The translations under genes were made by a program, and so were the position numbers. A stretch of DNA of 64,000 nucleotides from positions 8,284 to 72,283 of IMG/VR virus record IMGVR_UViG_3300028534_000017, one strand, 5' to 3'. A model generated the notes under the pieces. That model worked only from the letters and a program-made list of their open reading frames with translations, did no database searches and was not told the DNA's origin. Below are positions 860 to 27,771 of this stretch, one piece after another; the first letter of the stretch is position 1; the number at the start of each line of letters is the position of its first letter. This DNA comes from a virus.

Positions 860-1210
860 TTATGTATCAAATTTTATTTTTAATTTTTTATCGATAATAC
901 GCATGTTATTAGAATTATCTTTTAATAAACTATTCCAATAATTAGCCATTTTTATAATTTTTTTTACGTTTGGATGTTTACCTATTAAAAAAGAAGATAA
1001 TGGCCAATGTTCTGGAGCAACTTTTTCAAAAAAATCAAATGGTCCCAACTTAGGATTTCTATATTGTGGTTTAAAGTTATCCCAACCTTGATTACCAGGA
1101 AGCATTCTTTTTATCCAATCATCCGGATTTAAATCAAATTGTTCGAGTATTTTAAAAAATAAAACTACTTTTATATTACTCGATCTTATATTTATATCAT
1201 CATTAAACAT
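860..1210 (-). CDS. Hypothetical protein with KLKIKF tail
   Basis: 116 aa, ends KKLKIKFDT. Confidence 0.6.
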   Translation of the reverse strand: MFNDDINIRSSNIKVVLFFKILEQFDLNPDDWIKRMLPGNQGWDNFKPQYRNPKLGPFDFFEKVAPEHWPLSSFLIGKHPNVKKIIKMANYWNSLLKDNSNNMRIIDKKLKIKFDT

Positions 1211-1218
1211 ATTCTATC

Positions 1219-2124
1219 CTAAATATTAAAATAATTTCGTTTAAGAAATTTTAGAAAAGCTTCTAAGTATTCTATTTGTAATTTTTCTCCTCTTGGAGAA
1301 CCACCAATGCTTTTATGACCACCAGCTTTCTTACCAAAAAACGCCTGTAATGGTTCAATAACTCCATTCGGTCCGAAATATTTTTTAGATAATTCTTCAT
1401 TTTGACAAGCCAATGTAATACTATTACTACCAGTATTATACTGTAATATCATATCGTACTCTAAACCATTATTTAAATAACGATCGGTTACAGAAGTATT
1501 ACTAATATAAGTTACTAGTATTTTTGGAATGCTTAGTTCTAATTCGGTAATGTTCTTTAAAAAATCGTTTTCGTTAATTCCCTGTAAAAGATATTTTTTA
1601 ATATCTTCTGGAACATCAAGAATAATATAATCTCTAATACGAAGTATTAATTTATGAATATCCTTCGATAAACTATTTAAATTAATTTTCCAAAAATTAA
1701 TTAAACTCGTAACTGCTAAAAGTTTAATATGATTTGGATTGTCATAATTAAGTACTTCGTTTTTAAATTTATAAAATCCATTTCTATCTAAATATCCAAC
1801 TAACTCACTAAAATTTCTAGCAGTCTCTGTGTTTTTTAAATAACCACCTGCCCACATAATACCAAACACTGTATCTAAATCAACATGACTAATTATAAAA
1901 TTATTGTATTTATAATTAACCGGAGAATAATCATCAGGTATTAATATAGTACTTGCTGATTTATTATTCGATAGTTTTCCATGATGGAGCAGTTCCAGAA
2001 CTGCTCCATCTTTTTTCCCAAAATAATCATCACCATATTCGGTTTCTACTGCTACAACATCGGTCATGGTTTTAGAAAGTTTTACGGCATGTTCATACGT
2101 TGTTCCTAATTTTACTTCAATCAT
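1219..2124 (-). CDS. DHH-like phosphoesterase
   Basis: ISHVDLD, LHHG and C-terminal GGHKSIGG (DHHA1-like) motifs. Confidence 0.6.
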   Translation of the reverse strand: MIEVKLGTTYEHAVKLSKTMTDVVAVETEYGDDYFGKKDGAVLELLHHGKLSNNKSASTILIPDDYSPVNYKYNNFIISHVDLDTVFGIMWAGGYLKNTETARNFSELVGYLDRNGFYKFKNEVLNYDNPNHIKLLAVTSLINFWKINLNSLSKDIHKLILRIRDYIILDVPEDIKKYLLQGINENDFLKNITELELSIPKILVTYISNTSVTDRYLNNGLEYDMILQYNTGSNSITLACQNEELSKKYFGPNGVIEPLQAFFGKKAGGHKSIGGSPRGEKLQIEYLEAFLKFLKRNYFNI

Positions 2125-2158
2125 GAAATCTCCTTTATTTAACTTAAGCTACTTTATT

Positions 2159-3367
2159 TTAATCATTCTGACCATCTTGATTCTCTAAATAATCAAAGAT
2201 TTTAAAATCCTCTTTTTTTAAAGTAATATTTTCCGGAAGATGATCTAAAATTTCCGGATAGATTAGAAATGCTCCATTAATAAAATCAAAGATTTTATTT
2301 TTGAATTCATCGTTTTTGATAAATGCCTCTAGAATCTCCTTTGAAAATTCTAAATTTTCAGCAGATTCGTAATCTTTAGATTCAAATACTTCTAATTCAA
2401 ATGCCTCCGGTACTTCATCTACTACCATATTTTCAGTATTTCGCGCATTTTCATTTTTTACTTTGAGGTCCACTCTTTTGAAATCTTCTGGAAATAAACG
2501 AATTTTCACGATGTTTGTGTTTTGAACAGTTTCTCCATCTTCATTTTGTACTTCAATCGTAATTTTTTTAAGGAATACATAATCTCCAAAAGCTTGATAA
2601 GAATCAAAATCAAACACGACGTCGGCAAAAGTCTGATTTTTGTAAATTAAATCATAACTTCTTTCGTATTTAATAGTAATACTTTTATAAGCGAACGCAA
2701 TTTTTACAAGACCAACTATAATATTAATCAATGCTTGTTTATTATCCTTAAAACTTTTAAGAAGAATACTCGCATTGTTTTTATCGATGACATAAAAGAA
2801 GTTTTTAATCTCGGTGATATCCTGTTGAATATTTAAAAGGTATTTTTGAGCCTTAAAAATACTCATGTACGAATCGCCGGAAATTTTAGCCGGTTGAACC
2901 TTAGCTGTAAGTAAGTTGTTAACCATAATCGAATCGCGTGGTGGTTTAATATGATTAATATTAATGCATTTAACCATCTCTAAAATTCTTGGAGTAAGTT
3001 CTCCAAATGGTCTTAGGTATTGGCCCATCTCTAGGATTTTTGCTTTACCTCTTTCTCGATTCTGAAACAGCGATTTTGTATCATCATAAGTATAGATATC
3101 TCTTTCAAAATCCTTAATCTTATTGATGATATCTTCTTCAGAAATATTTAATTGTTGTGGAGCAGAGTAATCTCTATCTCTGTAAGCAGCATCTTCTTCT
3201 TGTGCATCATCTTCTCTTGTTAAACTTCTATCTGAATCAGTTAGACTAGTTCTAATCGCTGGTCTTGATTCTTCATTAGTGGTTCGAATAAGGCGTTGTC
3301 CAATATTGATTTCCGCTTCGTTTACTGGTACTTCTCTCGTTTCGTTTTCTGTTGTTATTGTAGACAT
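2159..3367 (-). CDS. Hypothetical protein (402 aa) downstream of a bipartite promoter
   Basis: Long ORF with RBS AAGGAG; no recognised motif. Confidence 0.6.
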   Translation of the reverse strand: MSTITTENETREVPVNEAEINIGQRLIRTTNEESRPAIRTSLTDSDRSLTREDDAQEEDAAYRDRDYSAPQQLNISEEDIINKIKDFERDIYTYDDTKSLFQNRERGKAKILEMGQYLRPFGELTPRILEMVKCININHIKPPRDSIMVNNLLTAKVQPAKISGDSYMSIFKAQKYLLNIQQDITEIKNFFYVIDKNNASILLKSFKDNKQALINIIVGLVKIAFAYKSITIKYERSYDLIYKNQTFADVVFDFDSYQAFGDYVFLKKITIEVQNEDGETVQNTNIVKIRLFPEDFKRVDLKVKNENARNTENMVVDEVPEAFELEVFESKDYESAENLEFSKEILEAFIKNDEFKNKIFDFINGAFLIYPEILDHLPENITLKKEDFKIFDYLENQDGQND

Positions 3368-3425
3368 TATATATGTCTCCTTTTTGTAATTTAATTTTTA
3401 TTTTTTACTAAAAATAAAGAAAAAT

Positions 3426-3455
3426 GATAAATATAAACCGCAGTTTATATTTATC
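3426..3455. promoter_or_regulatory. Perfect 13-bp hairpin immediately downstream of the promoter
   Basis: GATAAATATAAAC-CGCA-GTTTATATTTATC. Confidence 0.6.
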
Positions 3456-3461
3456 TGATAT

Positions 3462-3496
3462 TAAGATATCTATACAATCATGTCCTTATTTTAAAG
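3462..3496 (-). promoter_or_regulatory. Bipartite phage promoter candidate, copy 1
   Basis: CTTTAAAATAA-N10-GTATAGATATCTTA; same spacing as copies at 26221, 34624 and 54232. Confidence 0.7.
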
Positions 3497-3507
3497 ACAA
3501 GATTAGT

Positions 3508-3525
3508 AAAGGGCTTCGGCCCTTT
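3508..3525 (-). terminator. Intrinsic terminator after the beta C-terminal gene
   Basis: AAAGGGC-TTCG-GCCCTTT hairpin overlapping the stop codon. Confidence 0.8.
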
Positions 3526-5551: not shown

Positions 5552-5563
5552 TTATGTTCCTTA

Positions 5564-7132: not shown

Positions 7133-7170
7133 ATTGATCCTTTTTTATTTATTTATCTAATCCAAAAGGA

Positions 7171-7566: not shown

Positions 7567-7567
7567 T

Positions 7568-7999
7568 CTATCTCCTTTTACTTTTTTTAAATTTTTCTTC
7601 ATCTAATATTATTTGGATTTCACTAAGATATCCTATTTTTTTTATATTTCTTTGGATATTATCCTCATGTATATAAATTTCTTCAAATAACTGACAAGTT
7701 TGTTTTATAACATGTTCTTTGTACCATTTGATCTTAGCTTGCATATCTAAATAACTCAATTGTATTTTTTCAAATACCTTTATTACTTTTTCCTCATCCT
7801 CCGGATCTGGAATATTAGCTTCGGCTAATGTAAAATCTAGATAAATATCTTTCGAATCATCCGATAAATGTATTAGATAATCTTCCGCACACATATAACG
7901 TTCGGTTTGATCTAAAGGTTCTTTTGGATCAAACAATTTAAAATCTAAAAAAATATTTATCTTTTCCCTAGTACTTTGAAAAATATCTAACTTATTCAT
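7568..7999 (-). CDS. Hypothetical protein
   Basis: 143-aa ORF in operon context. Confidence 0.55.
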   Translation of the reverse strand: MNKLDIFQSTREKINIFLDFKLFDPKEPLDQTERYMCAEDYLIHLSDDSKDIYLDFTLAEANIPDPEDEEKVIKVFEKIQLSYLDMQAKIKWYKEHVIKQTCQLFEEIYIHEDNIQRNIKKIGYLSEIQIILDEEKFKKSKRR

Positions 8000-8564
8000 T
8001 AAGTTTCCTATTCAATTTCATAGTATATTTAAATAATGCTATATCATTATCAATATTTGGATCAATAATAAGAAAACCCTTTTTAAAGAAATTTCTATCT
8101 AAAGTTTCTATATTCTGACTCAAATAATCAGATATTATGGTACCAGGATAAGTATTAATATAAATAAGTACATCATGATTATTTAAAAGACATTCGAAAT
8201 CTTTTAAAACGTATTGTTTTAAATTTTCATAATCCTCCTTTTGATATTTTAATAATAAATAAGTTGGAATATTTTTATAAACCTGGATATAATTTAATAA
8301 AATATTATAATTTTCTAAAGCTTTCATATTTCGTTTATAAAATATAAACGAAACTATCCCAGCAAGAATATCAAAAATACCCAAATAAAACATAATGTTT
8401 GTATCGGCAGTGGCTGATATTATTATACCAATAATAATTAAATAAGCAGCTATTCCATAATTTACTACTGGACTTATCATAAACTTAAAAAATTTTTCTT
8501 TAAAATTTTTCTTTTCCATTTTAGTGTTTTCAATCATCCTGATTCCTTTATAATATTTTCCCAA
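7992..8564 (-). CDS. Membrane protein with two TM segments
   Basis: Hydrophobic YGIAAYLIIIGIIIS and FYLGIFDILAGIVSFIFY. Confidence 0.55.
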   Translation of the reverse strand: MGKYYKGIRMIENTKMEKKNFKEKFFKFMISPVVNYGIAAYLIIIGIIISATADTNIMFYLGIFDILAGIVSFIFYKRNMKALENYNILLNYIQVYKNIPTYLLLKYQKEDYENLKQYVLKDFECLLNNHDVLIYINTYPGTIISDYLSQNIETLDRNFFKKGFLIIDPNIDNDIALFKYTMKLNRKLNE

Positions 8565-9750
8565 ATAAATTAACTTTTGTAGTACTAGTAAGTACTAAAT
8601 TTAATGCTGTTTTATCAGCTGAAACCGAAATTGGACAAATCTTTCCAAACGTTTTTGGATGATTCTCTGTCCAAGATTTTGGTAAACGACCATCTGTAAT
8701 AATACTAATATCTTGAGATACTTTATGTATTAATGAAGATGGATACGGAAGACTTAAATCATATAAGTTACCTCGGTGGAGATTCTTATTAAAACCTTTG
8801 GTCATAATACTATTTTTATTCATACTTGCCAAAAAGTTTTGATTTGCTTTGTCAATCGCTCCATAAAGAAGTCTTACATAAATTTCGAAAACTGGTCTAA
8901 CCAAATATTCTAAAAGAACTATTCTTCTGTTATCTGGATCTGCCATATCGATTGGAGTTTCATTTATATACAACTCGATAATTTTTTTAAAGATTTCTGG
9001 AAGTGTTCGCACTCCATAATAATTATCAAAAACATCTCTGTAGTATTCAAGCATTAAAAAGTTATCAAAGAAATTGGTTATAGTTCCTTCCTTTTCAAAT
9101 AACTCGTAAAAAAAATCCGTTTTATGAAAACCAAAGAAATCAATAACTTTCTTTAATTCTTCTTTTGTGAATCTAAATGGATTCTCCCCAGTTTTTTTAT
9201 GGATTAATCCATGTTCTGCTAAATATTCTAAATACTCTTCATCTTTATTAAAAAATATTTTTAAGAATAAAAGCATATCTATTTTTTTATTTTTAAATTG
9301 AATTATCTTTTCATCATTAAAAATAAATGTAAAGTTATAAACTGGATTAATATTAGCAAATATTTTTTGCTCTTTATCCGATTCGACATCTATTCTATCA
9401 ATAGGAGCCTTCTCTAAAAATAATAATGGAACATAAACCATATTATTTAAAATAAAGAAATTATCCTTTATTAACTTTGGTACAAAAACCTCAATTTTAT
9501 TATCAAACTCTTTATATCTTTGAGTAATAATATAGTTATCCATAAATGAATTATCTTTATTTATATACCCTGGTTGAACATCTTCTTTGGTTAAGGTAAA
9601 ATTATAATCTGGATTTAATTCATGAATTTTTGAAAATAGATCTATTAAAATTACTTCTAATTTGCCCAAATCATGTTTTCTGAATTCCTTAATTAATAAC
9701 TCGTCGTTATCCTCTCTATTATCATATTTACTAAAACTTACTAAGTTCAT
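8548..9750 (-). CDS. rpoB: RNA polymerase beta-like subunit, N-terminal half (set 1)
   Basis: VPKLIKDNFFILNN (FIING-like) and HPKTFGKICPISVS (HxSxxGRICP-like). Confidence 0.85.
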   Translation of the reverse strand: MNLVSFSKYDNREDNDELLIKEFRKHDLGKLEVILIDLFSKIHELNPDYNFTLTKEDVQPGYINKDNSFMDNYIITQRYKEFDNKIEVFVPKLIKDNFFILNNMVYVPLLFLEKAPIDRIDVESDKEQKIFANINPVYNFTFIFNDEKIIQFKNKKIDMLLFLKIFFNKDEEYLEYLAEHGLIHKKTGENPFRFTKEELKKVIDFFGFHKTDFFYELFEKEGTITNFFDNFLMLEYYRDVFDNYYGVRTLPEIFKKIIELYINETPIDMADPDNRRIVLLEYLVRPVFEIYVRLLYGAIDKANQNFLASMNKNSIMTKGFNKNLHRGNLYDLSLPYPSSLIHKVSQDISIITDGRLPKSWTENHPKTFGKICPISVSADKTALNLVLTSTTKVNLFGKIL

Positions 9751-9887
9751 TAATTCTCCTCATCGTTTTCATCTGGATTAAAATTCTTATCCAGAATTCT
9801 TCTTCCTACTCTAACAATATATTCTTCTAAATCTTTTCTCCATGCATATACAATTAATGCAAGTATTCCTACGCCAGCTACATCCAT
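9750..9887 (-). CDS. Small membrane peptide, 45 aa (not in ORF track)
   Basis: MDVAGVGILALIVYAWRKD...; RBS GAAGGAG lies in the upstream FEGD tail; stop overlaps the beta start. Confidence 0.55.
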   Translation of the reverse strand: MDVAGVGILALIVYAWRKDLEEYIVRVGRRILDKNFNPDENDEEN

Positions 9888-9980
9888 TTAATCTCCTTCG
9901 AATTTTACTAAAATATCTTTTGGTTTATCTTCAGCTTCTTCAAATCTTCCTTCTTTTAAAAAAAGTTCTATTTCCTCCAT
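9888..9980 (-). CDS. 30-aa ORF with KIKFE-type tail, possibly the frameshifted 3' part of an ORF starting at 10078
   Basis: MEEIELFLKEGRFEEAEDKPKDILVKFEGD. Confidence 0.45.
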   Translation of the reverse strand: MEEIELFLKEGRFEEAEDKPKDILVKFEGD

Positions 9981-10074
9981 TAAAGATAATTCTTTTTTTC
10001 TCGTTTAGAAAATAATTTTTTTAAAGAATTTGAACCGTAATAACTCTCACCTAAGTATTGATTATTTAAATAAC

Positions 10075-10401
10075 TCATTTTATATCCTCATTTTCATCAA
10101 ATTTAATACCTGGTGAAATCATTTCTTTAATTGAAGTTGGTTTTTTAATGATATCCCAACTTCTAAAAGTTAACGATTTTTCATAATATGTTGTCTTAAT
10201 AGATGTATCTATATTATCTATATTCCAAGTATTATTATAATTCCAAGTATTATTATACATATTCGAAATATTATTATTTATTCGGTCATTTAATAGTTCC
10301 ATTATCTGTTTAGTCAATGTCGGATCAATATTATTTAAATTATTTAATTCGTCGAGTGTTGAAAAATTCCAAAAATCATCATTCATTGGAATCTCCTTCA
10401 A
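10075..10401 (-). CDS. Hypothetical protein (Asn-rich)
   Basis: 108-aa ORF, short internal repeat YNNTWNYNNTWN. Confidence 0.5.
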   Translation of the reverse strand: MKEIPMNDDFWNFSTLDELNNLNNIDPTLTKQIMELLNDRINNNISNMYNNTWNYNNTWNIDNIDTSIKTTYYEKSLTFRSWDIIKKPTSIKEMISPGIKFDENEDIK

Positions 10402-10720
10402 AATTAATTTTTAATTTTTCAGGTTTTTTTTGTTTATCGAATAATAAATTTTCAGGTATTTTAAGAGTTATTGCTATCTCCTGACGTAAATTAGTCATTT
10501 CCATGTCATCTAAAATTATCTCCTTTGGTCTTAAGCCATTAATCCCATAGATTGAATTATTGGTACCTCTAGGAGTATCGACACTCATACCAACTCCCAC
10601 ACCATACCGACTATTTACCATCATCTTTCTTAAAACATCATGGTTATCCAAATCTAAAATATTCATCCATTTGGCATATATACTTGAACTTCCTATGGTA
10701 TCTATTTGATCATCATTCAT
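10379..10720 (-). CDS. Hypothetical protein with KLKINFE tail
   Basis: Ends PEKLKINFEGDSNE. Confidence 0.55.
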   Translation of the reverse strand: MNDDQIDTIGSSSIYAKWMNILDLDNHDVLRKMMVNSRYGVGVGMSVDTPRGTNNSIYGINGLRPKEIILDDMEMTNLRQEIAITLKIPENLLFDKQKKPEKLKINFEGDSNE

Positions 10721-11755: not shown

Positions 11756-12109
11756 CTATTTTTTCCATTCTTGCTCTCCTTCAAAAATTATTCTTATTTT
11801 AGGAATATTTTTATCGATTTTGGATTTTTTAAATTCTATTTTATCGACCAAACATAATGATGCCCAAAGCAGATGTATATTTTCTAACTCACGTGCACTC
11901 TCTTTACCAAGATTAAGAAAATCCCGGTCCCAAACTACAAACGAATCAAAAAAACTTACAAGCATATTCCATTTTTTAACTTGTTTAAAAATATCTTCCC
12001 ATGTATCCATAGGCGAAAAATAACTATGTAAGACAACAATCTTTCTTAATTTTTCCTTATCTGAAAATTTTTGTTCTATAAAATCCATAAAATAAGCGAC
12101 TTCTTTCAT
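11756..12109 (-). CDS. Trp-containing paralog family protein with IxFE tail
   Basis: Similar to 12110..12448 (YFMDF); ends PKIRIIFEGEQEWKK. Confidence 0.6.
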   Translation of the reverse strand: MKEVAYFMDFIEQKFSDKEKLRKIVVLHSYFSPMDTWEDIFKQVKKWNMLVSFFDSFVVWDRDFLNLGKESARELENIHLLWASLCLVDKIEFKKSKIDKNIPKIRIIFEGEQEWKK

Positions 12110-12448
12110 TTACTCTCCCTCGAAATTGATTTTTAATTTTTTTATTTCAATATCTTTGAATACTATTGGTATATTTTTAGAGTTCGCATCGTGTACTATT
12201 CTTTTCCAATCAATATGAATACGTTCTAAATCCATTCGCGAATCGAATAATAATCGCCGATACTCATTTGCCCAATTAATAAGATAATTGAAAATATATC
12301 CAATATTGTTATCTCGCATGGATTTATTAAAACATTGTTCTAAAGACAGATTTTGAAATCCTGTGTTTTTTCTAAATATGCTTAGTAATGTTTCTATATC
12401 TGTGAATTCCTTTTCCACGAAATCCATAAAATATACCTTCTCTCTCAT
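12110..12448 (-). CDS. Trp-containing paralog family protein with KLKINFE tail
   Basis: Ends KKLKINFEGE. Confidence 0.6.
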   Translation of the reverse strand: MREKVYFMDFVEKEFTDIETLLSIFRKNTGFQNLSLEQCFNKSMRDNNIGYIFNYLINWANEYRRLLFDSRMDLERIHIDWKRIVHDANSKNIPIVFKDIEIKKLKINFEGE

Positions 12449-12528: not shown

Positions 12529-14550
12529 TTAATAATACATTTCCAATAGCTCATTATACATATGTCCAGTTCCTTCGTTACCAGCATTTTCATTTTTATA
12601 AACATTAGCAATCGCTCTATTACTAAAGTTATAAAAGATTGATAATTTTGGATCTAATTTTTCAATAATATTTTTTAGAGCTATTTGAATAACCGCTGGT
12701 TTATCTGAGTACTTACAGATATTATCATCTTCATCATAAAAAATAAGACTAAGAATCATTTCAAAATAAACACTAAGTAAATCATTTTGAGTTATTACTT
12801 CTACTAACGAATTATAAATTTCATTAGGAGCTATAAATTTATCATCCTTTCTATTTTTATCAATCAGAGATACGATACTAGTAAGAATTTTTACCGAATC
12901 ATCATTATATGGTAAATTAATTACCTTTAATGACATTATCGAATCTTTTACCGTAATATCTAAATCGGAATCATTATACTTAGTAAATAAATACTCTGTA
13001 ATGGTTTCGAGATTTTCTTCGGACGATTCTATTATTGTTTCATCTGGTTTAGCAATAATTTTAGAATCTTTTAAAATATCCAAAACTTTATAATCCAGTT
13101 CCGTAATAAAAGCTCCGCCGAAGTGATGCGCTCTAAGAACAGATTGAATAATACCCTCTGCAATATAACTACCAAGACTTGCTCCAACATGTTTGGAAGT
13201 AGGAGTTTTTTTACCAAAACATTTTTTACATATACCAAACGTTGGTACTTGACATTTTTGAGGACTATACATTCTCCAAGTTTTTCCAACCATATCATCA
13301 AAAAATAATTTCCAATCTTCGTTGGTTGTTTCAATATCTAAATAAAAATCTTCTTTAGTTTCCTCATTAATAAACCAGCGATGATTCACGGATTTAAGAT
13401 GATCTTTACTATGTATTTCTATATCAATTGTCTTACGTTCATCTATTGGAACGTTAGCTTGACAATCCTCTATATCTTCTTCAAAATGTAAAATACCAGT
13501 ACTGAAGAAAAATTTTCTCTGTAGTTCTCCACCTCTAGGAATACTATCTTGTCTCTGCATAAGTGCTAATCTTGCACTATCTCCGGTTTCGTAATATTCC
13601 TTTTGAGTTAAACCATCGAGTAATGAATGTTCAATATTTCTTGGAATAGCTTTACCATAGATATTGGTAGGAATTCCCGTATTACTTGCCGCTTTTAATA
13701 ATTGGACCGATTTTAATCTAGCTCCGGAATCGGATACCCTATGTAAAATATTATCGGGATTCTTTTTAACCTCAGGTCCAACATAATCCTCAAATAATAC
13801 CATATTCTGATGGAATGCTAGGTATGGTTCATTTTGAATAAGATTCTTTTTGTACTCTGTAATTTCTTCGGAATTTACAGCGAAGTCGTTTAAATCAAAA
13901 CTAGGATTACAATAATCAATCGTAGTACCAACTTCCATTAAAAATTTATCCAATTCATGTCCAAGATTCCACAATTCATTTGCTCTATTGTTCGCTTTTA
14001 AATCTTTATAAAATCTCCACATTAACTTAGTAAGATTTTTTTTATTTAGAATTTCAAACTGATGATATATTGTAAAATCATTAGATGTTTCGTCCCAATT
14101 AATAGGATGCAAACATCGGTTAATTAGCCAATCGGCTAAAGTAAGGGTTCTATCTAAATTTTCGATAGATATTACCAAATTATTTTTTTTAATAATATCA
14201 AAATCTATAAATTTTTCTCTAAGTTCCGCGAAGTCTTTTACAGTTATTTCTATATCACTTAATAATAAAGCATTTTCTCCAAACTCGTTATTAAGATCAA
14301 AATTTATGTTTTCATATGCTCTTTTAGTATACATATAACTAGCATAAATAGCTTCATGTTCAAAATCAAACAATAATGAATCCCTTTGTTCAAATTCAAT
14401 ATTATTATTTACAAACATATGTGTGAAATCGTGTTTCGCTTCTTCGGAATGTAACGCAGCAGCTATGACGTTGTCACCATCATAGTCATGATTATGAAGT
14501 ACAGAAGTTAAGTTAGATAACTCCATTACTCTATTTTTTCGTATTTCCAT
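12529..14550 (-). CDS. rpoC: RNA polymerase beta'-like subunit, C-terminal catalytic half (set 1); start reassigned to MEIRKN
   Basis: NHDYDGD (NADFDGD equivalent) near the N-terminus; SGARLK, LLDGLTQKEYY, GGELQRK, SPQKC...ICKKCFG and GIIQSVLRAHHFGG. Confidence 0.92.
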   Translation of the reverse strand: MEIRKNRVMELSNLTSVLHNHDYDGDNVIAAALHSEEAKHDFTHMFVNNNIEFEQRDSLLFDFEHEAIYASYMYTKRAYENINFDLNNEFGENALLLSDIEITVKDFAELREKFIDFDIIKKNNLVISIENLDRTLTLADWLINRCLHPINWDETSNDFTIYHQFEILNKKNLTKLMWRFYKDLKANNRANELWNLGHELDKFLMEVGTTIDYCNPSFDLNDFAVNSEEITEYKKNLIQNEPYLAFHQNMVLFEDYVGPEVKKNPDNILHRVSDSGARLKSVQLLKAASNTGIPTNIYGKAIPRNIEHSLLDGLTQKEYYETGDSARLALMQRQDSIPRGGELQRKFFFSTGILHFEEDIEDCQANVPIDERKTIDIEIHSKDHLKSVNHRWFINEETKEDFYLDIETTNEDWKLFFDDMVGKTWRMYSPQKCQVPTFGICKKCFGKKTPTSKHVGASLGSYIAEGIIQSVLRAHHFGGAFITELDYKVLDILKDSKIIAKPDETIIESSEENLETITEYLFTKYNDSDLDITVKDSIMSLKVINLPYNDDSVKILTSIVSLIDKNRKDDKFIAPNEIYNSLVEVITQNDLLSVYFEMILSLIFYDEDDNICKYSDKPAVIQIALKNIIEKLDPKLSIFYNFSNRAIANVYKNENAGNEGTGHMYNELLEMYY

Positions 14551-16896: not shown

Positions 16897-16897
16897 A

Positions 16898-17156: not shown

Positions 17157-17354
17157 TTATTTAACCATTTCTATATCAGATATTAATTTATCTAATGCGT
17201 CTCGAAGTTCTTTCGCTTTTTTTAAATCTAAATAAATATCATAACTAGAATCATCCAAATTTGCTTCAAGTGATTCTATATTTGGATATTCGCATTCCTC
17301 TAAACAAGGATTTACTTTGGTCGAACTAATTTTTTCTAAAACGATAATTTTCAT
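17157..17354 (-). CDS. Hypothetical protein (start reassigned to MKIIVLE)
   Basis: RBS GAGGAGG upstream of ATG at 17354. Confidence 0.5.
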   Translation of the reverse strand: MKIIVLEKISSTKVNPCLEECEYPNIESLEANLDDSSYDIYLDLKKAKELRDALDKLISDIEMVK

Positions 17355-18925
17355 TCTTCCTCCTCTTTTATCCATTCGTATTTTAAATTTCCACAATTAT
17401 AAATTTTTCTATAACCATTTTCAAGCATAATTTGTTTTTCGGTTTTAGAATCTTTATAATTTGGTAAATGTTTTAATTTTGACTTAATAAATTTCGATCT
17501 AGTAAACAATTCTCCATTTTTAGTATAACTATAACTAGGTAAAGATTCTCCTATAAAAGTAAAACCCAAAGTCAGATATAAATTTTTATTTGAATATGCT
17601 ATTCTTTTATTCGCATATGATAAAATACTTTTTGGTCGATAATTTTTAATAAAATACTTAAATAATTTACTAGCTCCTCCAACCACAGAAGTATTTAAAA
17701 TATTACAGAATCTTATTAATTCATATTCGTATGTTTTATCGTACCTTGGAGTGCTAAAAGTCATTAAACTGACCAAAGTATCTTTATGATATAAACCCAG
17801 TTTTATTTTACCGGGAGTACTTCCCTGCAAATGATTATTTTCTAAAAATAATTTAGAATCTTTAGAAGATACCTCTTTAACGATCAACTTTCTAGCGTAG
17901 TACGATTTGATATTTTTTCCAAGTTTATTCCGAATAATACTTTTCCAAATATCTTTCTTTTGTATCCATTCATTTTCAAAAATATGTAATAAATTGAAAT
18001 TTTTTTCTTCCATCACTTGAGTTTTTTCTAAATGTTTAAATTTATATTTATATTCTTGATCAATTTTACTTAAACCAAAACTATGCCAATACAAACCATT
18101 ATATTCTATAGCTAAATTATATTCCGGTATTAAAATATCAATTTCTTTACCTATTAATGATTTATCATTTTCAATAGTTTCTATATTTAAACTATTAATG
18201 AATGAATTTACTTCCTTTTCTCCTTCGGAATATTTAAGATTTTTTATTTGATATTCTATACCAAGCTTTCGGAATTGTTTGTATGGTAAAGTTTCGGAAC
18301 AATTAAAATATTCTCTAAACAATTTCCATTTAATTTTTTTATTTTTATCTAAAAAATTTTTTATAAGAAAATCCCTATTATAAAATAATTCCTTATTTTG
18401 TCGATGACCAAGAATTATATTATTAATTCTTTTCTTTCTTAGTAAAATATTTTCTTCTTCTAAAATTATTCGATTTTTAAAATTATCCTTTCCTGGACGA
18501 TTGTCCCAAGAACCATATTTTTCAATAATTGTTTTTTTACGTTTTTCCAATCTTTTTTCCGCGTTTTCTTTTTCCCGAGTAGATGAATTTTTTTTATTTT
18601 TTGGATCAGTATTAAAACATTTTAAATTACAATATCTTTTAACATATGGTCCGTGATTTGGATTAGCTTTTTCTATTTTAAATTTTAATTCTTTAAAACA
18701 TGTTTCGCATAAAGGTTTTTGGTTATAATCATTTTTTATACACCACAATAAATCCCCAAACGATATAGATTCTTTATTTGGAATATTATTTAAATAAGTA
18801 TAGATATCCCTTATCAAATCCACATCCTTCTTTAAAGTAAAACTATTTAATTTTTCATTACCATTTTTATCAAAGAATTGAAATTTAGATATTTTTTTAA
18901 GAAGTTCTTCCTTCGTTAAACTCAT
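17351..18925 (-). mobile_element. Free-standing Hef-like homing endonuclease
   Basis: EIDILIPEYNLAIEYNGLYWHS, FLENNHLQG and GGASKLF; paralog of 14550..16040; overlaps the 3' end of the beta' N gene. Confidence 0.8.
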
Positions 18926-20529: not shown

Positions 20530-20538
20530 AATAAACCT

Positions 20539-21315
20539 TTAATCGAAATTAACATTTAATTTAAATGTTTTTACTGTAAATTCTCGTTCGTTTAATCGTT
20601 TACCATTAATCCAATATTGGGATTTTTTGGTTTTATATGTATATACGAACGCTGGTCCATCTTCGCGATGCAATTTACCATTTACCCAATATTGCAAATA
20701 TCCCATATATTTGCATTCTACCGCTGGTCCATCCATTCGATGAAATTTTCCATTAATAGCCCAGATTTTACAATATCTTTTTGAAATACTTGCTGGTCCA
20801 TCTTCTCTATGTAAAAATTTTTTATACTCTTGGATTAAATCATTTTTAAATCGTTTTTTTGCTGATGGGGATATTAATATAGCGACTCGTCTTATATTAG
20901 ATAAACTATTCCAATCTATCTTAAAAAAATAAATTTTTGTATGAGTATAAAATATCCAATCGTTTCTAGGAACTGGTCTAAGTTTAAAAAGTATTCGGAG
21001 TACTTTAAAAAAATGAATATATTTAAAGGCAGAAGATGGTTTATAAAATATTGGAAATATTCCATATTTAAAATATTTATAATATATATATAATGGATAT
21101 AACTTAAAAAAATCTATTACATATATAAAAGATAATTTAAATAATTGAAAAATTTTTTTAAAGGTTTTATAAAAAGTTGGAAAATACTTATATATTGATT
21201 TCCATTTTAAAGTATCCTCTAGTAACGGTTCTTCTAACATTTCATCTATATTTGATTGACTAGTTTGTCCACGTTCTCCAACTGGTCCTCTGATGTGTCC
21301 ATCAATTTCGATCAT
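20539..21315 (-). CDS. Protein with LHRxDGPA (MORN-like) repeats
   Basis: LHREDGPA, FHRMDGPA and LHREDGPA repeats; ends KLNVNFD. Confidence 0.7.
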   Translation of the reverse strand: MIEIDGHIRGPVGERGQTSQSNIDEMLEEPLLEDTLKWKSIYKYFPTFYKTFKKIFQLFKLSFIYVIDFFKLYPLYIYYKYFKYGIFPIFYKPSSAFKYIHFFKVLRILFKLRPVPRNDWIFYTHTKIYFFKIDWNSLSNIRRVAILISPSAKKRFKNDLIQEYKKFLHREDGPASISKRYCKIWAINGKFHRMDGPAVECKYMGYLQYWVNGKLHREDGPAFVYTYKTKKSQYWINGKRLNEREFTVKTFKLNVNFD

Positions 21316-21316
21316 A

Positions 21317-21718: not shown

Positions 21719-21948
21719 TCTTCTTCCTTTTTCTTTTTTCCATATAAACAACCCATATCCATTCTTAAACAGACGTGATCGTATCCAAATAATTCTCTAG
21801 ACCAATAACAATCCATACTTGATCCATCCTCCTCGGTTCCGTATTTACATTCTTGACGTAAAATTATTTCATTTCCTTTTACTGGTTCTGAAACTGGTTC
21901 TGGATTAGGTTTAATTTTTTTAAGATTTTCCCTCATTCCAGTATTCAT
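21712..21948 (-). CDS. Small Cys-rich hypothetical protein
   Basis: 78 aa with several Cys residues. Confidence 0.45.
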   Translation of the reverse strand: MNTGMRENLKKIKPNPEPVSEPVKGNEIILRQECKYGTEEDGSSMDCYWSRELFGYDHVCLRMDMGCLYGKKKKEEEC

Positions 21949-21995
21949 TAAAAATTGAATTATTATCTATTTTCATACTTTTACCAAACGTTCTT

Positions 21996-22391
21996 TTATT
22001 CCTCCCAATTATCTAATAATTCCTTTTCGGAATACACCACACCTAAAGTTTTAAAATAAGCTTGGGCATTATGAGTATTTCCATTTTCATCAATTACGGA
22101 AAGAGGTTTTCTTTGATACATCGATGTTTCAAAAGTATCCAATTTATTTAATTTTGTATGGTGAAATACCCAAATTTCCCCTTTAATAAATTTACCATGA
22201 TCTTCTTTATCTAAAAGATATGGGAATTTTATTCCGTACTTACTATCATTTGGTATCATTGGATATTTCTTACTAGTCATAGCCTTACCAAGAAAAGTAC
22301 CATTCTTAGCAGCTAATTCATTATTAGAAAATCCCTTTTTTAAGGTACCATATATAAATATTTTTACTAAGCCCATTTTAATTTCCTTCAA
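21996..22391 (-). CDS. Gamma-glutamylcyclotransferase (AIG2-like)
   Basis: IFIYGTLKKGFSNN, PYL, GEIW, LDTFE. Confidence 0.85.
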   Translation of the reverse strand: MKEIKMGLVKIFIYGTLKKGFSNNELAAKNGTFLGKAMTSKKYPMIPNDSKYGIKFPYLLDKEDHGKFIKGEIWVFHHTKLNKLDTFETSMYQRKPLSVIDENGNTHNAQAYFKTLGVVYSEKELLDNWEE

Positions 22392-23208
22392 AAATTTCTA
22401 AATCTGATTCTTCTGTAAAAAAATTAGATATCTTTTTAGGTATAAATTTTAATTGTTCGCAAGAACAATTAAAATATTTTAAACCAAACTCTTCGCCAAA
22501 TGGATTTATATTTCTAGAATGTGTATGTCCATGAAAATTAAATTTTATATTGGAGTATTCATTTACTACATGAATTAACTTATCAATTCTTGGATTTATT
22601 TTTTCATTTTTACCTCGTCTAGAAACTTCTTTCTCATATTCTGAAATTGGATAATGACTAAAAATAGAATTATTCATAATCAAAGCACTGAATAAATTAT
22701 CGTTATCTTCTCCAGGTACTTCTCGCATTATTATTTTACCATTTTTTAAAAATAGAATTTCAACTAATCCTCTAATTACAGTAAAATTTGGATAAGAATT
22801 TAAACCACTTCTATCATGATTACCAAGAATTAAAATTTTATTTCCATTTAATTTTGGAATAATTTCCTGAATTCCTTTCCAAGCAAAATCTCCCAAACAT
22901 ATAATAAGATCGTTCTCTTCAATCACTTCATTCCATTTTTTAATTAACATTTCATTATGAAAAATTACCAAATCCTTAGAAATGATTTCTAATCTTTTAT
23001 ATGTTTTTCCTGTATCCTGATACTCGGAGTATTGGAAATCTTTTATTACTTTAATAAACTTTTCTGGAAGTTCTGGATGTTCAAGAACTAAATCTAATCT
23101 AGATTTTTCAAAAAGTAAAACCCGATCATGAAAAAAATGAGTATCTGATATTATACGAGTACTTCCATTAATCTTTTTTAAAATTTCAAGATCTTTTCTT
23201 TCTAGCAT
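22378..23208 (-). CDS. Calcineurin-like metallophosphoesterase
   Basis: SDTHFFH, LGDF, GNHD, SHYP and HGHTH motifs. Confidence 0.88.
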   Translation of the reverse strand: MLERKDLEILKKINGSTRIISDTHFFHDRVLLFEKSRLDLVLEHPELPEKFIKVIKDFQYSEYQDTGKTYKRLEIISKDLVIFHNEMLIKKWNEVIEENDLIICLGDFAWKGIQEIIPKLNGNKILILGNHDRSGLNSYPNFTVIRGLVEILFLKNGKIIMREVPGEDNDNLFSALIMNNSIFSHYPISEYEKEVSRRGKNEKINPRIDKLIHVVNEYSNIKFNFHGHTHSRNINPFGEEFGLKYFNCSCEQLKFIPKKISNFFTEESDLEIFEGN

Positions 23209-23209
23209 T

Positions 23210-23944
23210 TTAATCCTCCGATTTGACTAAATGGTTATCTGGATGTTTCTCCATTGTTAATTTTTTAATAACTTCCGGAATTATACATTTAATATTGTCG
23301 ATTTTTTTATATTTTTTATTAACCGATTTCGTATCTTTTGATAATTTGTCAATCCATCCTGTAATTTGACCAGCTCCGGATCCAGTAGTATTACAAACAC
23401 ATTTTTTAGAAGTAATATAATATTTATATTTTTTAGTAAATACTAATTTCATATTCTCTTTTGGTTGAATAAAAATATTTATGTCTACATTTTCACCCAT
23501 TGGAGAATATAAACTAGTTAAAAAATTGTATAGATATCCCTCTTTATTTCCAGTACCAATTCCAGTTCGAACTGGATTAAGCTCAGTATACTTATAAAAA
23601 ACTTTATCTTTTTTATCAAACAATAGATAAAATTCTCTATTATTACCAAATACTTTTACAATAATATTTTTATATTTTTCTTGAATATTAAGAATATTAT
23701 CCGAATATCTTTTCATTTTTTTCTTAAAGTTTTCCATTGGGTCCAAATGTTCTTCAAAACATTCTTCTGGAAATCCCATTCGTAAAAATTCCATCATTTC
23801 CGATTCGGACACAACACTTTCATTAATTTTTAAATAATTATTAAAATATTTTTGTCCATCGAAAACAACTTCGTCAAATTTTAATAAACCATCTTTTACT
23901 TCTCTTGGTAAAGTAAAACTATATCTTTTTTCTACGTTTTCCAT
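23210..23944 (-). CDS. Hypothetical protein
   Basis: 244-aa ORF. Confidence 0.55.
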   Translation of the reverse strand: MENVEKRYSFTLPREVKDGLLKFDEVVFDGQKYFNNYLKINESVVSESEMMEFLRMGFPEECFEEHLDPMENFKKKMKRYSDNILNIQEKYKNIIVKVFGNNREFYLLFDKKDKVFYKYTELNPVRTGIGTGNKEGYLYNFLTSLYSPMGENVDINIFIQPKENMKLVFTKKYKYYITSKKCVCNTTGSGAGQITGWIDKLSKDTKSVNKKYKKIDNIKCIIPEVIKKLTMEKHPDNHLVKSED

Positions 23945-23964
23945 TTCTTTTTCCTTTAATTTAT

Positions 23965-24309
23965 TTAATTATGAAATTGAATTTCAATTTTATGAATATT
24001 TTTCTTTTTTGGATACAATGTTCCAAAAGAAACCTTAACTGGCAAATTTTCTAAAGATTGACAATAATTATACCAGGTATTATTTATACCTTCCCAAATA
24101 CTTCCACCCATTATGCTTTCACTCCAAGTGAAAGCATAATTAACATATTCCTCCACTTCTACTTCGGTGTATGGAGTTAAACTAACTAAATCTTTTACAT
24201 TAGTCGAAGTATATGTATTTATAAAATCCTGAACTATTTCCGGTGGATAATTATTCCGTAACCATTCCATAAATTCTATTTTCATTTTATTCCTTTCTAA
24301 ATTATTCAA
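23965..24309 (-). CDS. Trp-rich paralog family protein
   Basis: FTWSESIMGGSIWEGINNTW core; ends KIEIQFHN. Confidence 0.6.
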   Translation of the reverse strand: MNNLERNKMKIEFMEWLRNNYPPEIVQDFINTYTSTNVKDLVSLTPYTEVEVEEYVNYAFTWSESIMGGSIWEGINNTWYNYCQSLENLPVKVSFGTLYPKKKNIHKIEIQFHN

Positions 24310-24325
24310 TAACTATCTATACCAC

Positions 24326-24541
24326 GTACCATGAATAGTTAACTATTAATAGTTATTTATTTTTAAAATCTCTAGCTAACAGATTTTAAAATAAACTTAA
24401 AATCAAAAAGCAAGTCCCCTATTTACCGGTGATATCAATGTTTGAAAAATTAACTATTTCTTAAATTCTCGTCTCAGAAAATTTTTGTCTTTTTGAAATA
24501 ACTGGCTGTCTATAGATAGTTGACACTATGAATAGTTATTT
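24326..24541. repeat. 216-bp repeat, inverted copy of 36499..36714
   Basis: Manual alignment shows identity except a ~10-nt central block and one substitution. Confidence 0.9.
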
Positions 24542-24878
24542 ACTCAAACTTAATTTTAAGTTTTTGTCTTTTTTTTAAATAATTAAAATCTATATAAACA
24601 TTATTTATATGTATATTATTATTATAAACGAATTCGCTCCAATCTGAATCGATTTTTGAAAATGAATAATTAACTGTTAACTCAGCATGATGCCAAATAA
24701 AAAGTTTATCTATAACAGAAGAAATATGATGGAGACCTTTTATATTAGAATCAACTGGCATAACTTTTTCAAAAAATCCTAACTGTTTTATATTAAAAGA
24801 ATATTGTAATTCTTTTAATATATCTTCTTCTTTGAAATTATAATTATTAACTAACCATTCTATTAAATTTATTCTCAT
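24540..24878 (-). CDS. Trp-rich paralog (diverged third copy of a tandem triplet)
   Basis: Starts MRINLIEWLVNNY; ends KLKIKFE. Confidence 0.7.
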   Translation of the reverse strand: MRINLIEWLVNNYNFKEEDILKELQYSFNIKQLGFFEKVMPVDSNIKGLHHISSVIDKLFIWHHAELTVNYSFSKIDSDWSEFVYNNNIHINNVYIDFNYLKKRQKLKIKFE

Positions 24879-25235
24879 TTAATCTCCTTCGAATTTTATT
24901 TTTAACTTTTCTTTTTTAAAAAAATTAAAATCGTAATAAACATCATTTATATCAAGATAATTAAGATCACAGAACTTTCTCCAATCAGCATCGATGTATA
25001 GAAAACGAAATGGTTCTTTAGTTCCTAACCCTTTTCTACTATCGGCATGTTGCCAAATAAATAATCTGTCTATACTTCCCTGAACTCTTCCTAAATCATG
25101 TATAGCAGATAATTCTTTTTTATCGTAATATTTACCAAGATTTTTATTATTAAAAGAATACTGTAATTCTGATTTTAAAACATCTCGATCCATATAATAA
25201 TTATTAACTAACCATTCTATTAAATTTATTCTCAT
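24879..25235 (-). CDS. Trp-rich paralog (tandem duplicate)
   Basis: Near-identical to 25236..25592; 357-bp period. Confidence 0.75.
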   Translation of the reverse strand: MRINLIEWLVNNYYMDRDVLKSELQYSFNNKNLGKYYDKKELSAIHDLGRVQGSIDRLFIWQHADSRKGLGTKEPFRFLYIDADWRKFCDLNYLDINDVYYDFNFFKKEKLKIKFEGD

Positions 25236-25592
25236 TTAATCTCCTTCGAATTTTATTTTTAACGTTTCTTTTTTAAAAAAATTAAAATCGTAATAAACAT
25301 CGGATATATCAAGATAATTAAGATCACAGAACTTTCTCCAATCATCATCTATGTATAGAAAATAAATTGCTCCTTTAGTTCCTAACCCTTCTGCCTGATT
25401 AGCGTGTTGCCAAATAAATAATCTGTTAATACTTTCCTTGACTCTTCTTAAACCATGTATAGCAGATAATTCTTTTTTATCATAATATTCGCCAAGATTT
25501 TTATTATTAAAAGAATACTGTAATTCTGATTTTAAAACATCTCGATTCATATAATAATTATTAACTAACCATTCTATTAAATTTATTCTCAT
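25236..25592 (-). CDS. Trp-rich paralog (tandem duplicate)
   Basis: Near-identical to 24879..25235; ends LKIKFEGD. Confidence 0.75.
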   Translation of the reverse strand: MRINLIEWLVNNYYMNRDVLKSELQYSFNNKNLGEYYDKKELSAIHGLRRVKESINRLFIWQHANQAEGLGTKGAIYFLYIDDDWRKFCDLNYLDISDVYYDFNFFKKETLKIKFEGD

Positions 25593-25967
25593 TTAATCTC
25601 CTTCGAACTTAATTTCAATTTTTTTCAAATTATTTATCGAACGATCGATAAATATTTTTTTTACTTTATATTCTGGTCGACCTTTAAATTTTTCAATATT
25701 AAATAAAAAAGCATTCCATCTACTGTCTATAAAACGCCAGTATTCGTGTCCCTGCGGAGTTTCATGCCAAATAGCATGTAAAAGTATATATTGATTTGGA
25801 TTTACAGTTTCCCTATATAGTCTTTCTTTTCTAGTTAATGATAATAAAGAAATGTTATATAAAAAATTTTCCCGAACTGATTGATAATTAACCACTCTTT
25901 TAGAAAATTCATCTAACCATTCTAAAAAACAAATTTCTTCATTTAAATATGGTTTTTTAAAATTCAT
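25593..25967 (-). CDS. Trp-rich paralog family protein
   Basis: IWHETPQGHEYWRFIDSRW core; ends KIEIKFEGD. Confidence 0.65.
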   Translation of the reverse strand: MNFKKPYLNEEICFLEWLDEFSKRVVNYQSVRENFLYNISLLSLTRKERLYRETVNPNQYILLHAIWHETPQGHEYWRFIDSRWNAFLFNIEKFKGRPEYKVKKIFIDRSINNLKKIEIKFEGD

Positions 25968-26002
25968 TTATTTTTCCTTTTTTAATTTAAGTAAGTATAA
26001 AA

Positions 26003-26215
26003 TGGTCCCGCGCCTTGCTTCGAGGTAGTAAGCCAAGTAGTACTAAGTATCAATCCCATTACCAATCTATTGTATATCTTGCTTTACGCTGGTACAATCC
26101 CTTGTACCAATATACTATTGATAATGTATTAATCCTAATACCACCTGCCATACTGCTCTATGCCTGACCGGTAACCCGATATAATAAGCTTCTTTCATCT
26201 TATTGTATCTTTTCT
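26003..26215 (-). ncRNA. Candidate small RNA or structured leader
   Basis: Visibly GC-enriched, no long ORF, directly downstream of promoter copy 2; contains hairpin TGGTACAA-GGGA-TTGTACCA. Confidence 0.35.
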
Positions 26216-26220
26216 GATTA

Positions 26221-26255
26221 TAAGATATCTATACATATGTATAGTTATTTTAAAG
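26221..26255 (-). promoter_or_regulatory. Bipartite phage promoter candidate, copy 2
   Basis: CTTTAAAATAA-CTATACATAT-GTATAGATATCTTA. Confidence 0.7.
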
Positions 26256-26271
26256 TAAAATTACGCCTAAA

Positions 26272-26595
26272 TTACTCAAAATTTATCTTAAGTTTTTCTC
26301 GGTTTATTTCCTCTCTTTTATAAAAAAGTATCTGAGTACTATCTTCTAAATTAGATACCATATTTTCCCATTTATGTGATAAACCATGCCAATCAGTTGT
26401 ATGCCTATTAGGTACTCTTGAAAATGAAAAAGCATTTAAAATCCAAAGAATTGGATGATTTTTAGACATGTAATCGGATAATGAACTATAATTGGTCTGA
26501 CTTTGATCCATATGATCGACAAACCAATCGATATTTATATTTTTATCATTTAAAAATTCTTCTAGACTATAATATTTCATTTTACTTCCAATCAA
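26272..26595 (-). CDS. Trp-rich paralog family protein
   Basis: YSLEEFLN shared with 26806..27150; ends KLKINFE. Confidence 0.6.
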   Translation of the reverse strand: MIGSKMKYYSLEEFLNDKNINIDWFVDHMDQSQTNYSSLSDYMSKNHPILWILNAFSFSRVPNRHTTDWHGLSHKWENMVSNLEDSTQILFYKREEINREKLKINFE

Positions 26596-26805
26596 ATAAT
26601 CTTGCTAAAACTTTTTCATGTGATCCATTGATCATTGCTTCATCTCTCCATACTGGCCTGTATGTGTGTCTATTTTGGCTTACCAATTTTAAATAAACTT
26701 CTGGTTTATTTTTTCAATATCTTTGATAATATTTTCAAACGATTCCTCAACCATATCTATACTTCCAACCACTTTTTTCTTTAACATAACTTTTTCCTTT
26801 TTTAT

Positions 26806-27150
26806 TTATTCGAACTTAATTTCGATATTTCTTATTTTTTTTAAATTATAGAATGTTATCTTGCAATCTTCATTTAGTGCATATTTGCAAAATTCTCTCC
26901 ACTCGTTATCCAAATATTCCCAAATGCTATATGAATAATCATTTGTATTGATATCCAATTTTTCAGCATTATGTTCCGACCATAAAAATGCTTTTACAAT
27001 CCATTCATTTGGTAAAAATTGTTTTTCGAATTGTTTTACAGAAAAAACATTTTGAGTTAATTCAAAATATTGGGAATTATCCATAAGTGATACAAATGTC
27101 TTTATATCCAATGCTTTTTCATTTAAAAACTCCTCTAGTGAATATACCAT
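26806..27150 (-). CDS. Trp-rich paralog family protein
   Basis: AFLWSE...IWEYLDNEW core; ends NIEIKFE. Confidence 0.6.
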   Translation of the reverse strand: MVYSLEEFLNEKALDIKTFVSLMDNSQYFELTQNVFSVKQFEKQFLPNEWIVKAFLWSEHNAEKLDINTNDYSYSIWEYLDNEWREFCKYALNEDCKITFYNLKKIRNIEIKFE

Positions 27151-27153
27151 TAT

Positions 27154-27360
27154 TTATCCTTTAAATATATATTGATCTATATTATAAAATATAAACGCCC
27201 CAATAATAGAAACTATTACTAAATCAATATATTCTTTATATTTTCCAAACTTTTTAGTCAACCCATATTTATTTATAATAACCAATGGTATCATCATTAC
27301 AAATGCGCTAAATATCCATCTACTTAAATAAATACCAAACTGTTCCGTCAAAAAACACAT
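27154..27360 (-). CDS. Small two-TM membrane protein
   Basis: Two hydrophobic stretches. Confidence 0.5.
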   Translation of the reverse strand: MCFLTEQFGIYLSRWIFSAFVMMIPLVIINKYGLTKKFGKYKEYIDLVIVSIIGAFIFYNIDQYIFKG

Positions 27361-27771
27361 TCATTCTCCTTCGAATTTTATTTTAATTTTTTCTAAGTTT
27401 TTTACATTTTTTTTATAACTTTTTAGAATTATTTTTTCTGGTTTATAATTTCCAATCAATTCTCTCCAAGAAGCATATAAACTTTCTAAATACTTTAGGT
27501 AATCAGTTTCTATTAAATTTAAACCATCTTTAAAAGAATCATTAAAAAATCTACTTGGGTTATACAATCTTCTTTCTCTAGCTATTTCAAAAAAATCTTC
27601 TATTTTGACGTAATCAATCTTTGCAAAAAATCCTTTTTCATCTGAATCAGCTATATAAAAGTTTAAAAATTTTCTGGTATTTAATTCAGGATAAACATCT
27701 ATAAAATCTTCAAAACTTAATACTCCATTTTCAACAATTTTTATAAAATCAATATAACCATTATGATTCAT
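27361..27771 (-). CDS. Hypothetical protein with KIKIKFE tail
   Basis: Ends LEKIKIKFEGE. Confidence 0.6.
   Translation of the reverse strand: MNHNGYIDFIKIVENGVLSFEDFIDVYPELNTRKFLNFYIADSDEKGFFAKIDYVKIEDFFEIARERRLYNPSRFFNDSFKDGLNLIETDYLKYLESLYASWRELIGNYKPEKIILKSYKKNVKNLEKIKIKFEGE

Follow-up and report, generated by a model that had tools for sequence, protein, structure and literature searches.

A short peptide, K-[LI]-x-I-x-F-[ED], was found at the C-terminal end of fourteen proteins encoded in the 64,000 bp window analysed here, which covers bases 8284–72283 of the single-contig virus record IMGVR_UViG_3300028534_000017 (130,160 bp, 26% GC, completeness estimated at 46%). Sequence comparisons indicate that selection acts on this tail peptide and that the bodies carrying it are among the fastest-changing genes of the phage. 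We propose that the tail is a short linear motif used as a common interaction handle of the strand type, a reading to which we give an even chance. The tail strand would add to a single shared partner, or would link the tagged proteins together, and with such a handle bodies could be exchanged and diversified without losing their connection to a common site. Binding by the tail, and the existence of one reader for all carriers, are inferences.

The phage was compared to the sister phage G001 (167 kb), whose RNA polymerase (RNAP) beta subunit is 97% identical, and to two complete relatives devoid of the tail, G002 (281 kb, 33% GC) and G004 (272 kb, 27% GC). Additional metagenomic contigs were retrieved via members of the main carrier family: L051 (46 kb), L052 (91 kb), L058 (204 kb) and L059. 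In these four contigs the gene order was maintained and extra tail carriers were present.

Genes lie on the minus strand up to position 36444 of the window and on the plus strand from 36814. All fourteen C-terminal tails listed by the first-pass annotation were recovered next to the stop codons, on the minus strand. Its description of about 15 small proteins sharing the tail is correct as to the tails, but 11 of the 14 carriers belong to one diverged paralogous family, Trp-rich and helical, and the number of independent events is far smaller. The carriers and two marginal cases are as follows (aa, amino acids).

860–1210, minus strand: family member, Trp-rich helical, tail KLKIKFDT; the body without its tail is homologous to the family.
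9888–10078, minus strand: second body type, small, tail DILVKFEGD; an A7 run at about 9993–9999 contains a frameshift.
10075–10386, minus strand: third body type, marginal carrier with the degenerate tail GIKFDENEDIK; the tail of the L051 ortholog is canonical (KLKLKFEGEE).
10379–10720, minus strand: fourth body type, tail KLKINFEGDSNE; the next gene, which overlaps at its start, is served by the GGAGAT.
11756–12109, minus strand: family member of the YFMDF subgroup by body homology, tail KIRIIFEGEQEWKK.
12110–12448, minus strand: family member of the YFMDF subgroup by body homology, tail KLKINFEGE.
20539–21315, minus strand: 258 aa, N-terminal part hydrophobic, HREDGPA (MORN-variant-like) repeats; tail KLNVNFD.
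22378–23208, minus strand: metallophosphoesterase ending in LEIFEGN, marginal, the motif being short by one residue.
23965–27771, minus strand: array of eight family members, all tailed, divided by regulatory spacers; the tails are KIEIQFHN (23965), KLKIKFE (24540), KLKIKFEGD (24879), TLKIKFEGD (25236), KIEIKFEGD (25593), KLKINFE (26272), NIEIKFE (26806) and KIKIKFEGE (27361).

The open reading frame (ORF) at 9888 as read encodes 30 aa, the C-terminal half of a 63-aa gene split by a frameshift of one nucleotide (nt). Supplying one undetermined base in the A7 run restored a 63-aa protein matching the orthologs of G001 (53 aa, tail KLDVKFEGD) and L051 (67 aa, tail PKIKFEGD). An assembly error, a pseudogene or slippage might each account for the frameshift.

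The pattern [LIV][KENRQ][IV]xF[EDH] was scanned over the 170 ORFs of the 130-kb record. It matched 18 times, and 13 of the matches were located within seven residues of the C-terminus. The expected number was about 0.17 (0.16 from composition-preserving shuffles and 0.18 from the internal match rate), which corresponds to a binomial P of 2e-20, to be read with the fact that the carriers include paralogs and are hence not independent. The enrichment over shuffled proteins called for by the first-pass annotation was thus present. G001 showed seven C-terminal matches versus approximately 0.2 expected, and G002 and G004, which are also AT-rich, showed none. The absence of C-terminal matches in these two relatives means that an AT-rich composition fails to account for the enrichment.

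A consensus was derived from 57 distinct tails. It starts with K at position −1 (43 of 57), conserved although this position lies outside the search pattern, followed by L (36) or I (20), then K, N or E, then I (45), K or N, F, and finally E (37) or D (14). The residues upstream are usually a Lys-rich stretch. Downstream, 16 tails end directly after the motif, 14 continue with GD and five with GE, and the others have up to eight other residues. The hydrophobic positions (L/I, I and F) alternate with charged residues, as in an amphipathic beta-strand. Because zero to eight residues may trail the motif, any reader would recognise the strand itself and not the free carboxylate of the chain end in a fixed register.

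The G[DE] extension, encoded by GGAGAT or GGAGAA, was observed almost exclusively where the next ATG comes 0–5 nt after the stop codon or overlaps it. It is present at 9888, 10379, 12110, 24879, 25236, 25593 and 27361, where the next start is immediate (TAA-ATG or TGA-ATG) or overlapping, and is absent at 860, 20539, 23965, 24540, 26272 and 26806, where either no gene comes next or the spacer has a GGAG of its own. The sole exception in the window, 11756, retains a GGAGAG with no gene directly after it; its L051 ortholog has such a gene. The same rule applies in G001 and L058, except for the G001 gene at 39071 (FEGN, no adjacent gene). In the present genome the six EG[DEN] endings all come after F, and G004 possesses three EGE endings without F. 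The extension is thus the Shine-Dalgarno sequence of the downstream gene, as the first-pass annotation had suggested for the GD/GE ending.

A similar logic might be extended to the whole tail, the nucleic acid being selected as an A/T-rich stretch plus GGAG, whether for translational coupling or enhancement or for recombination by microhomology, with the peptide as a by-product. We regard this as highly improbable. The link between G[DE] and an ATG within 0–5 nt of the stop and the position of the six EG[DEN] endings after F are in its favour, together with the use of the Phe codon TTC in 15 of 23 tails (window and G001), a codon that accounts for 20% of Phe elsewhere when a GA- codon comes next (P 4e-6, without correction for shared ancestry). 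This TTC excess may result from accuracy selection, shared ancestry or the TTCGAA context. However, TTC was the only enriched codon, and no further nucleotide conservation beyond what the peptide needs was seen. For K, L, I, E and D, codon choice follows the genome usage with free synonymous variation, so that the DNA of the tails seems to be under no extra constraint. Moreover, tails are retained where no gene follows (24540, 26272 and 20539) and before spacers of 100–300 nt or spacers with their own Shine-Dalgarno sequence, and their reading frame and amino acid pattern are preserved across orthologs with saturated synonymous sites. The more limited idea that the tail acts as a microhomology for cassette shuffling agrees with the change in copy number of the family, which counts 11 members here versus 6 in G001, but shuffling is not the cause of the sequence conservation.

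The contrast between tails and bodies was seen in the comparison with G001. Carriers were 31–64% identical to their orthologs (median 39%), compared to a median of 81% for the other 116 orthologs and of 78% for the other proteins of 140 aa or less (Mann-Whitney P 1.4e-6). The gene at 860 is 39% identical to its ortholog, versus 89–90% for the neighbouring genes. In seven ortholog pairs, 40 of the 49 core tail residues were identical. Genome-like codons and tail residues kept on diverging bodies bear out the selection on the peptide that had been read from synonymous variation. A fixed peptide on proteins whose rate of change is three to four times the genome average offers an experimental handle: large phages possess many small, fast-evolving genes with no assigned function, and the tail would mark which of these orphan genes act together and could be used as a bait for a common partner.

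Profile searches on tail-trimmed bodies connected 23965, 24540, 24879, 25236, 25593, 26272 and 26806. Leave-one-subgroup-out profiles, with tails trimmed, were then compared to the database of 170 proteins, giving E-values of 1e-8 for 12110, 3e-8 to 1e-6 for the RINLIEWL group and 5e-10 for 25593. The protein at 27361, never included in any profile, was found with E-values of 4e-6 to 7e-3 without its tail, and the 860 body without its tail with 0.0026 when its own subgroup was excluded and at most 3e-13 when other subgroups were excluded. Without tails, membership therefore covers 11 of the 14 window carriers (E 5e-10 to 7e-3), the others being 10379, 20539 and the 9888 gene. From the N-terminus, the family layout consists of a helix with F-[LM]-[ED]-[WF]-L, the motif A-F-x-W, a helix with I-x-x-x-W and a short x-I-x-F strand, followed by the tail.

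Among 1.84 billion representatives, the family profile retrieved 37 proteins, of which approximately 27 are 100–125 aa long and end with the same tail. The body matched no Pfam or PHROG family significantly and no PDB sequence, and Foldseek (PDB, BFVD, AFDB), Atlas and VIA-align searches remained at noise level (best Z 3.1). An Atlas feature search with a distant family member gave no match. The domain exists as two to five tandem repeats in the metagenomic proteins P0013, P0017, P0027, P0031 and P0032 (173–515 aa), which lack the tail. Its repeat consensus, A-F-x-W-x-x-T-x-E-G-x-x-F-W-x-x-I-x-x-x-W, has no Pfam match and no name. The Trp-rich body would thus be a new domain, single in these phages and repeated in larger proteins elsewhere. 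Distant family members, and the single or double copies of G002 and G004, are also without tail, which implies that the tail was an addition within one clade. For the only recent duplicate pair, dN/dS was 0.56 over the full length and 0.80 for the middle third, values that do not prove positive selection.

The weight of this single family among the carriers allows another explanation, in which the tail is a family signature spread by shuffling of gene 3' ends, with no common reader. The strand would be the last element of the Trp-rich or HREDGPA family fold or of a homo-oligomer, and unrelated carriers would have gained it as a passenger through recombination at the junction formed by the tail codons, the Shine-Dalgarno sequence, TAA and ATG. 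The paralogy of 11 of the 14 carriers, the tandem copies adjoining exactly at FEGD-TAA-ATG, the variation in copy number relative to G001 and the similar x-I-x-F strand located upstream in family members are all consistent with it. Conversely, distant members of the family and the proteins with several repeats fold with no such tail. We consider this explanation unlikely, and further points against it come from the other bodies and from the structure model.

At least four unrelated body types bear the tail in the window and at least seven across the clade: the Trp-rich family, the HREDGPA-repeat proteins, the 10379, 10075 and 9888 types, a 74-aa protein of L051 and a 63-aa protein of G001. After trimming of the tails, profile-profile comparison with hhalign detected no relation between the seven types (probability of 3% or less), and the 10379 body in particular matched the family with an E-value of 3.7 and an hhalign probability of 1.6%. 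The bodies, first described as partly unrelated, therefore show no detectable kinship between types. L058 possesses five HREDGPA-repeat proteins ending in KLNINFN, KLVINFN or IKIKFE, and family members together with other bodies bearing the same tail were found in four further metagenomic phage contigs. In the tiny carriers (53–74 aa) of three genomes, the tail is nearly the sole conserved segment. This retention, and the presence of the same residues, including K at position −1, on seven unrelated body types, are difficult to reconcile with a passenger tail. An upstream hydrophobic-x-F element was considered as a second feature common to all carriers and was discarded, as its background frequency is 22% and some carriers do not have it.

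The 10379 type is hypervariable (G001 26521–26928; L051:11905–12222) and contains KKM[ILM][LV]NS[RT]YG..G[IV]G, which resembles motif B of family-B DNA polymerases (PolB; Kx3NSxYG). A relationship with PolB was rejected, the similarity to the PolB of the relatives ending at the motif (3.4 bits).

An AlphaFold2 model built from a 36-sequence family alignment reached a predicted local distance difference test score (pLDDT) of 80.5 and a predicted template modelling score of 0.71; a run with a 10-sequence alignment was uninformative (pLDDT 49). The model contains five helices and two short strands (residues 8–10 and 88–90), and the tail (residues 96–107) is unstructured, with a pLDDT of about 50 or less. 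The tail is thus predicted to be a flexible extension and not part of the body, and being unpacked in the model it does not look like the last element of the fold. As both the shuffling and the nucleic-acid explanations fit less of the data, we favour them less than the handle. Docking or co-assembly through a strand fits best with the alternation of residue types, the flexibility of the attachment, the sequence-specific conservation on unrelated bodies and the varying number of trailing residues.

In the gene neighbourhood, the following features stand next to the tailed genes.

27810–28850, minus strand: clamp-loader ATPase, immediately upstream of the array (phrog_168 at 6e-30, PF00004, PF13177).
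27154–27360, minus strand: 68-aa protein with two transmembrane segments, within the array; its start overlaps the stop of the tailed gene 27361, and it is 91% identical in G001.
9750–9887, minus strand: conserved 45-aa protein with one transmembrane segment, directly after the second tail cluster.

The array follows the clamp-loader gene in L058 as well. The second tail cluster is flanked by a radical SAM gene and, with the 45-aa membrane protein, by a 400-aa protein conserved at 97%. Over the window, the neighbours of the carriers are RNAP subunits, ligase, a radical SAM enzyme, the clamp loader, a QueC-like protein, a RecJ/DHH protein and a phosphoesterase, and no capsid or shell gene adjoins them. 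The 68-aa and 45-aa membrane proteins are each encoded right behind a tailed gene, whose stop abuts or overlaps their start. Their position is constant in every related contig examined (for the 68-aa protein including L058 and L059), and the surrounding tailed genes vary. An inverted repeat of about 216 bp, at 24310–24541 and 36445–36813, shows 73–82% identity to three tandem copies at L058:11492–12452. The L058 copies sit in the spacer dividing the array, and this homology points to a conserved regulatory element of the array.

Among known systems, the tails of T4 gp43, gp33 and gp55 bind the gp45 clamp, and the acidic tails of T7 gp2.5 and gp4 bind the polymerase. Like these, the present tail is short, lies near the terminus behind a flexible linker, occurs on otherwise unrelated proteins of a single phage and is encoded near replication genes. 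Unlike them, it is basic and hydrophobic with a beta-strand pattern, neither acidic nor helical, and it is borne by many hypervariable proteins of unassigned function in place of core enzymes. N-terminal extensions of chaperone-usher pilins act as handles through donor-strand complementation or beta-augmentation. Here also an alternating hydrophobic strand, unstructured alone, would fill a groove or a sheet edge in trans, but the resemblance is one of pattern only, and no acceptor fold was identified. Capsid loading, clamp binding, membrane tethering via the small transmembrane proteins and a degron are all possible roles.

The first of these would make the tail a cargo or packaging signal, loading variable proteins into the capsid for co-injection. 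Encapsulin cargo-loading peptides are likewise about 7–10 conserved C-terminal residues behind a flexible linker on unrelated proteins, and T4 internal proteins, encoded at loci hyperplastic among related phages, are small and have a constant terminal peptide. The tail, a C-terminal peptide behind a flexible linker on unrelated and hypervariable small proteins, follows the pattern of both systems. In T4, however, the capsid-targeting sequence stands at the N-terminus and the prohead protease cuts it off after Glu, whereas the present tail is C-terminal, does not fit an [IL]-x-E protease site and in 16 of 57 cases ends directly at E or D. Its sequence also differs from that of encapsulin peptides, and the carriers are surrounded by genes of replication, transcription and nucleotide metabolism and not by head, capsid or shell genes. 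In summary, the T4 and T7 tails, the encapsulin peptides and the T4 capsid-targeting sequence share a logic with the tail and differ from it in sequence, terminus or context. Packaging is, in our opinion, quite unlikely.

In a second version the tail would be a sliding-clamp-binding peptide, bringing accessory proteins to the replication fork or competing for the clamp. Clamp-binding motifs are of the form QL[SD]LF or QLxLxL. The L-x-I-x-F hydrophobic spacing matches the bacterial hexapeptide QLxLxL, the motif is near-terminal on a flexible linker, and the array comes directly after the clamp-loader gene here and in L058. On the other hand, the first position is Lys in 43 of 57 tails and Gln is not among the residues seen there, and the DNA ligase of this phage carries no tail motif. 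Neither a clamp (PF02916, PF00712, PF00705) nor a PolB (PF00136) was found in this 46%-complete record; a divergent PolB is present in the complete relatives. The 244-aa protein at 23210–23944 was considered as a clamp and was not recognisable as one. Altogether we hold clamp binding to be very unlikely.

A broader version can be formulated without choosing the destination. The tail would be the sorting signal of the clade, one phage or host receptor reading K-[LI]-x-I-x-F-[ED] and gathering at least seven unrelated types of diversifying accessory proteins at one site, which might be the capsid interior, a replication or transcription factory, or the membrane via the small transmembrane proteins of both clusters. 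We put this forward as a possible but doubtful reading. If true, the bodies would be swapped freely in an arms race and the address would stay fixed, and the peptide would provide a portable targeting sequence for this group of phages. To our knowledge, a linear address signal of this kind has not been described in large phages. In phages that form a nucleus, linear import signals were looked for and none was found (PMC11087766).

Several observations weigh against a common handle. No partner was found; a search for the hub by phyletic pattern (conserved in G001, absent from G002 and G004) returned 33 candidates, too many to be useful. With 11 of the 14 window carriers being paralogous, their count largely reflects descent. 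The monomer model is also compatible with the strand packing in cis or in a homo-oligomer. Finally, a co-evolving reader would cause concerted changes of the tails, and no such genome-wide change was seen among G000, G001, L051 and L058. A hint of it was limited to the 1.5-kb contig L060, in which two adjacent diverged family members (positions 201–971) have a different common tail, EIKILKQKKL and PKILKLKKI. This L060 tail may be a lineage-specific version of the tag.

The tail had also been reported to begin the RNAP beta subunit. The protein encoded at 36814–39927 (plus strand) is indeed a multisubunit RNAP beta-like protein, approximately 25% identical to proteins of Staphylococcus, Listeria, Yersinia and Fusobacterium jumbo phages, and it begins with MPKSKIKINFEN, as stated.

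36826–36846, plus strand: KIKINFE, residues 5–11 of the RNAP beta subunit, judged unrelated to the tails.

The proposed link was not supported, since the strand is conserved in relatives lacking the tail: KIKINFENEK has counterparts at the N-termini of the orthologs, including G002 (MYRINFENEK) and G004 (FYIDFHNEK). In RNAP beta the strand runs on into a conserved NEK..L.FYEK segment, which the tails do not have. One N-terminal match in 170 proteins compares to about 0.15 expected by chance. The resemblance is judged a coincidence or at most a convergence, and the idea of mimicry found no support.

Apart from the carriers, other genes are far from their G001 counterparts (26–34% identity), at 7992–8564 (minus strand), at 54331–55119 (plus strand) and, past the window end in window numbering, at 98268–103060, a region which includes a paralog cluster. 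Two paralogous HNH homing endonuclease genes, at 14550–16040 and 17351–18925 (both on the minus strand), are sited among the RNAP subunit genes. The 17351–18925 gene has no counterpart at the same site in G001, where the best match, 38% identical, is located elsewhere in the genome, and this suggests a recent mobility.

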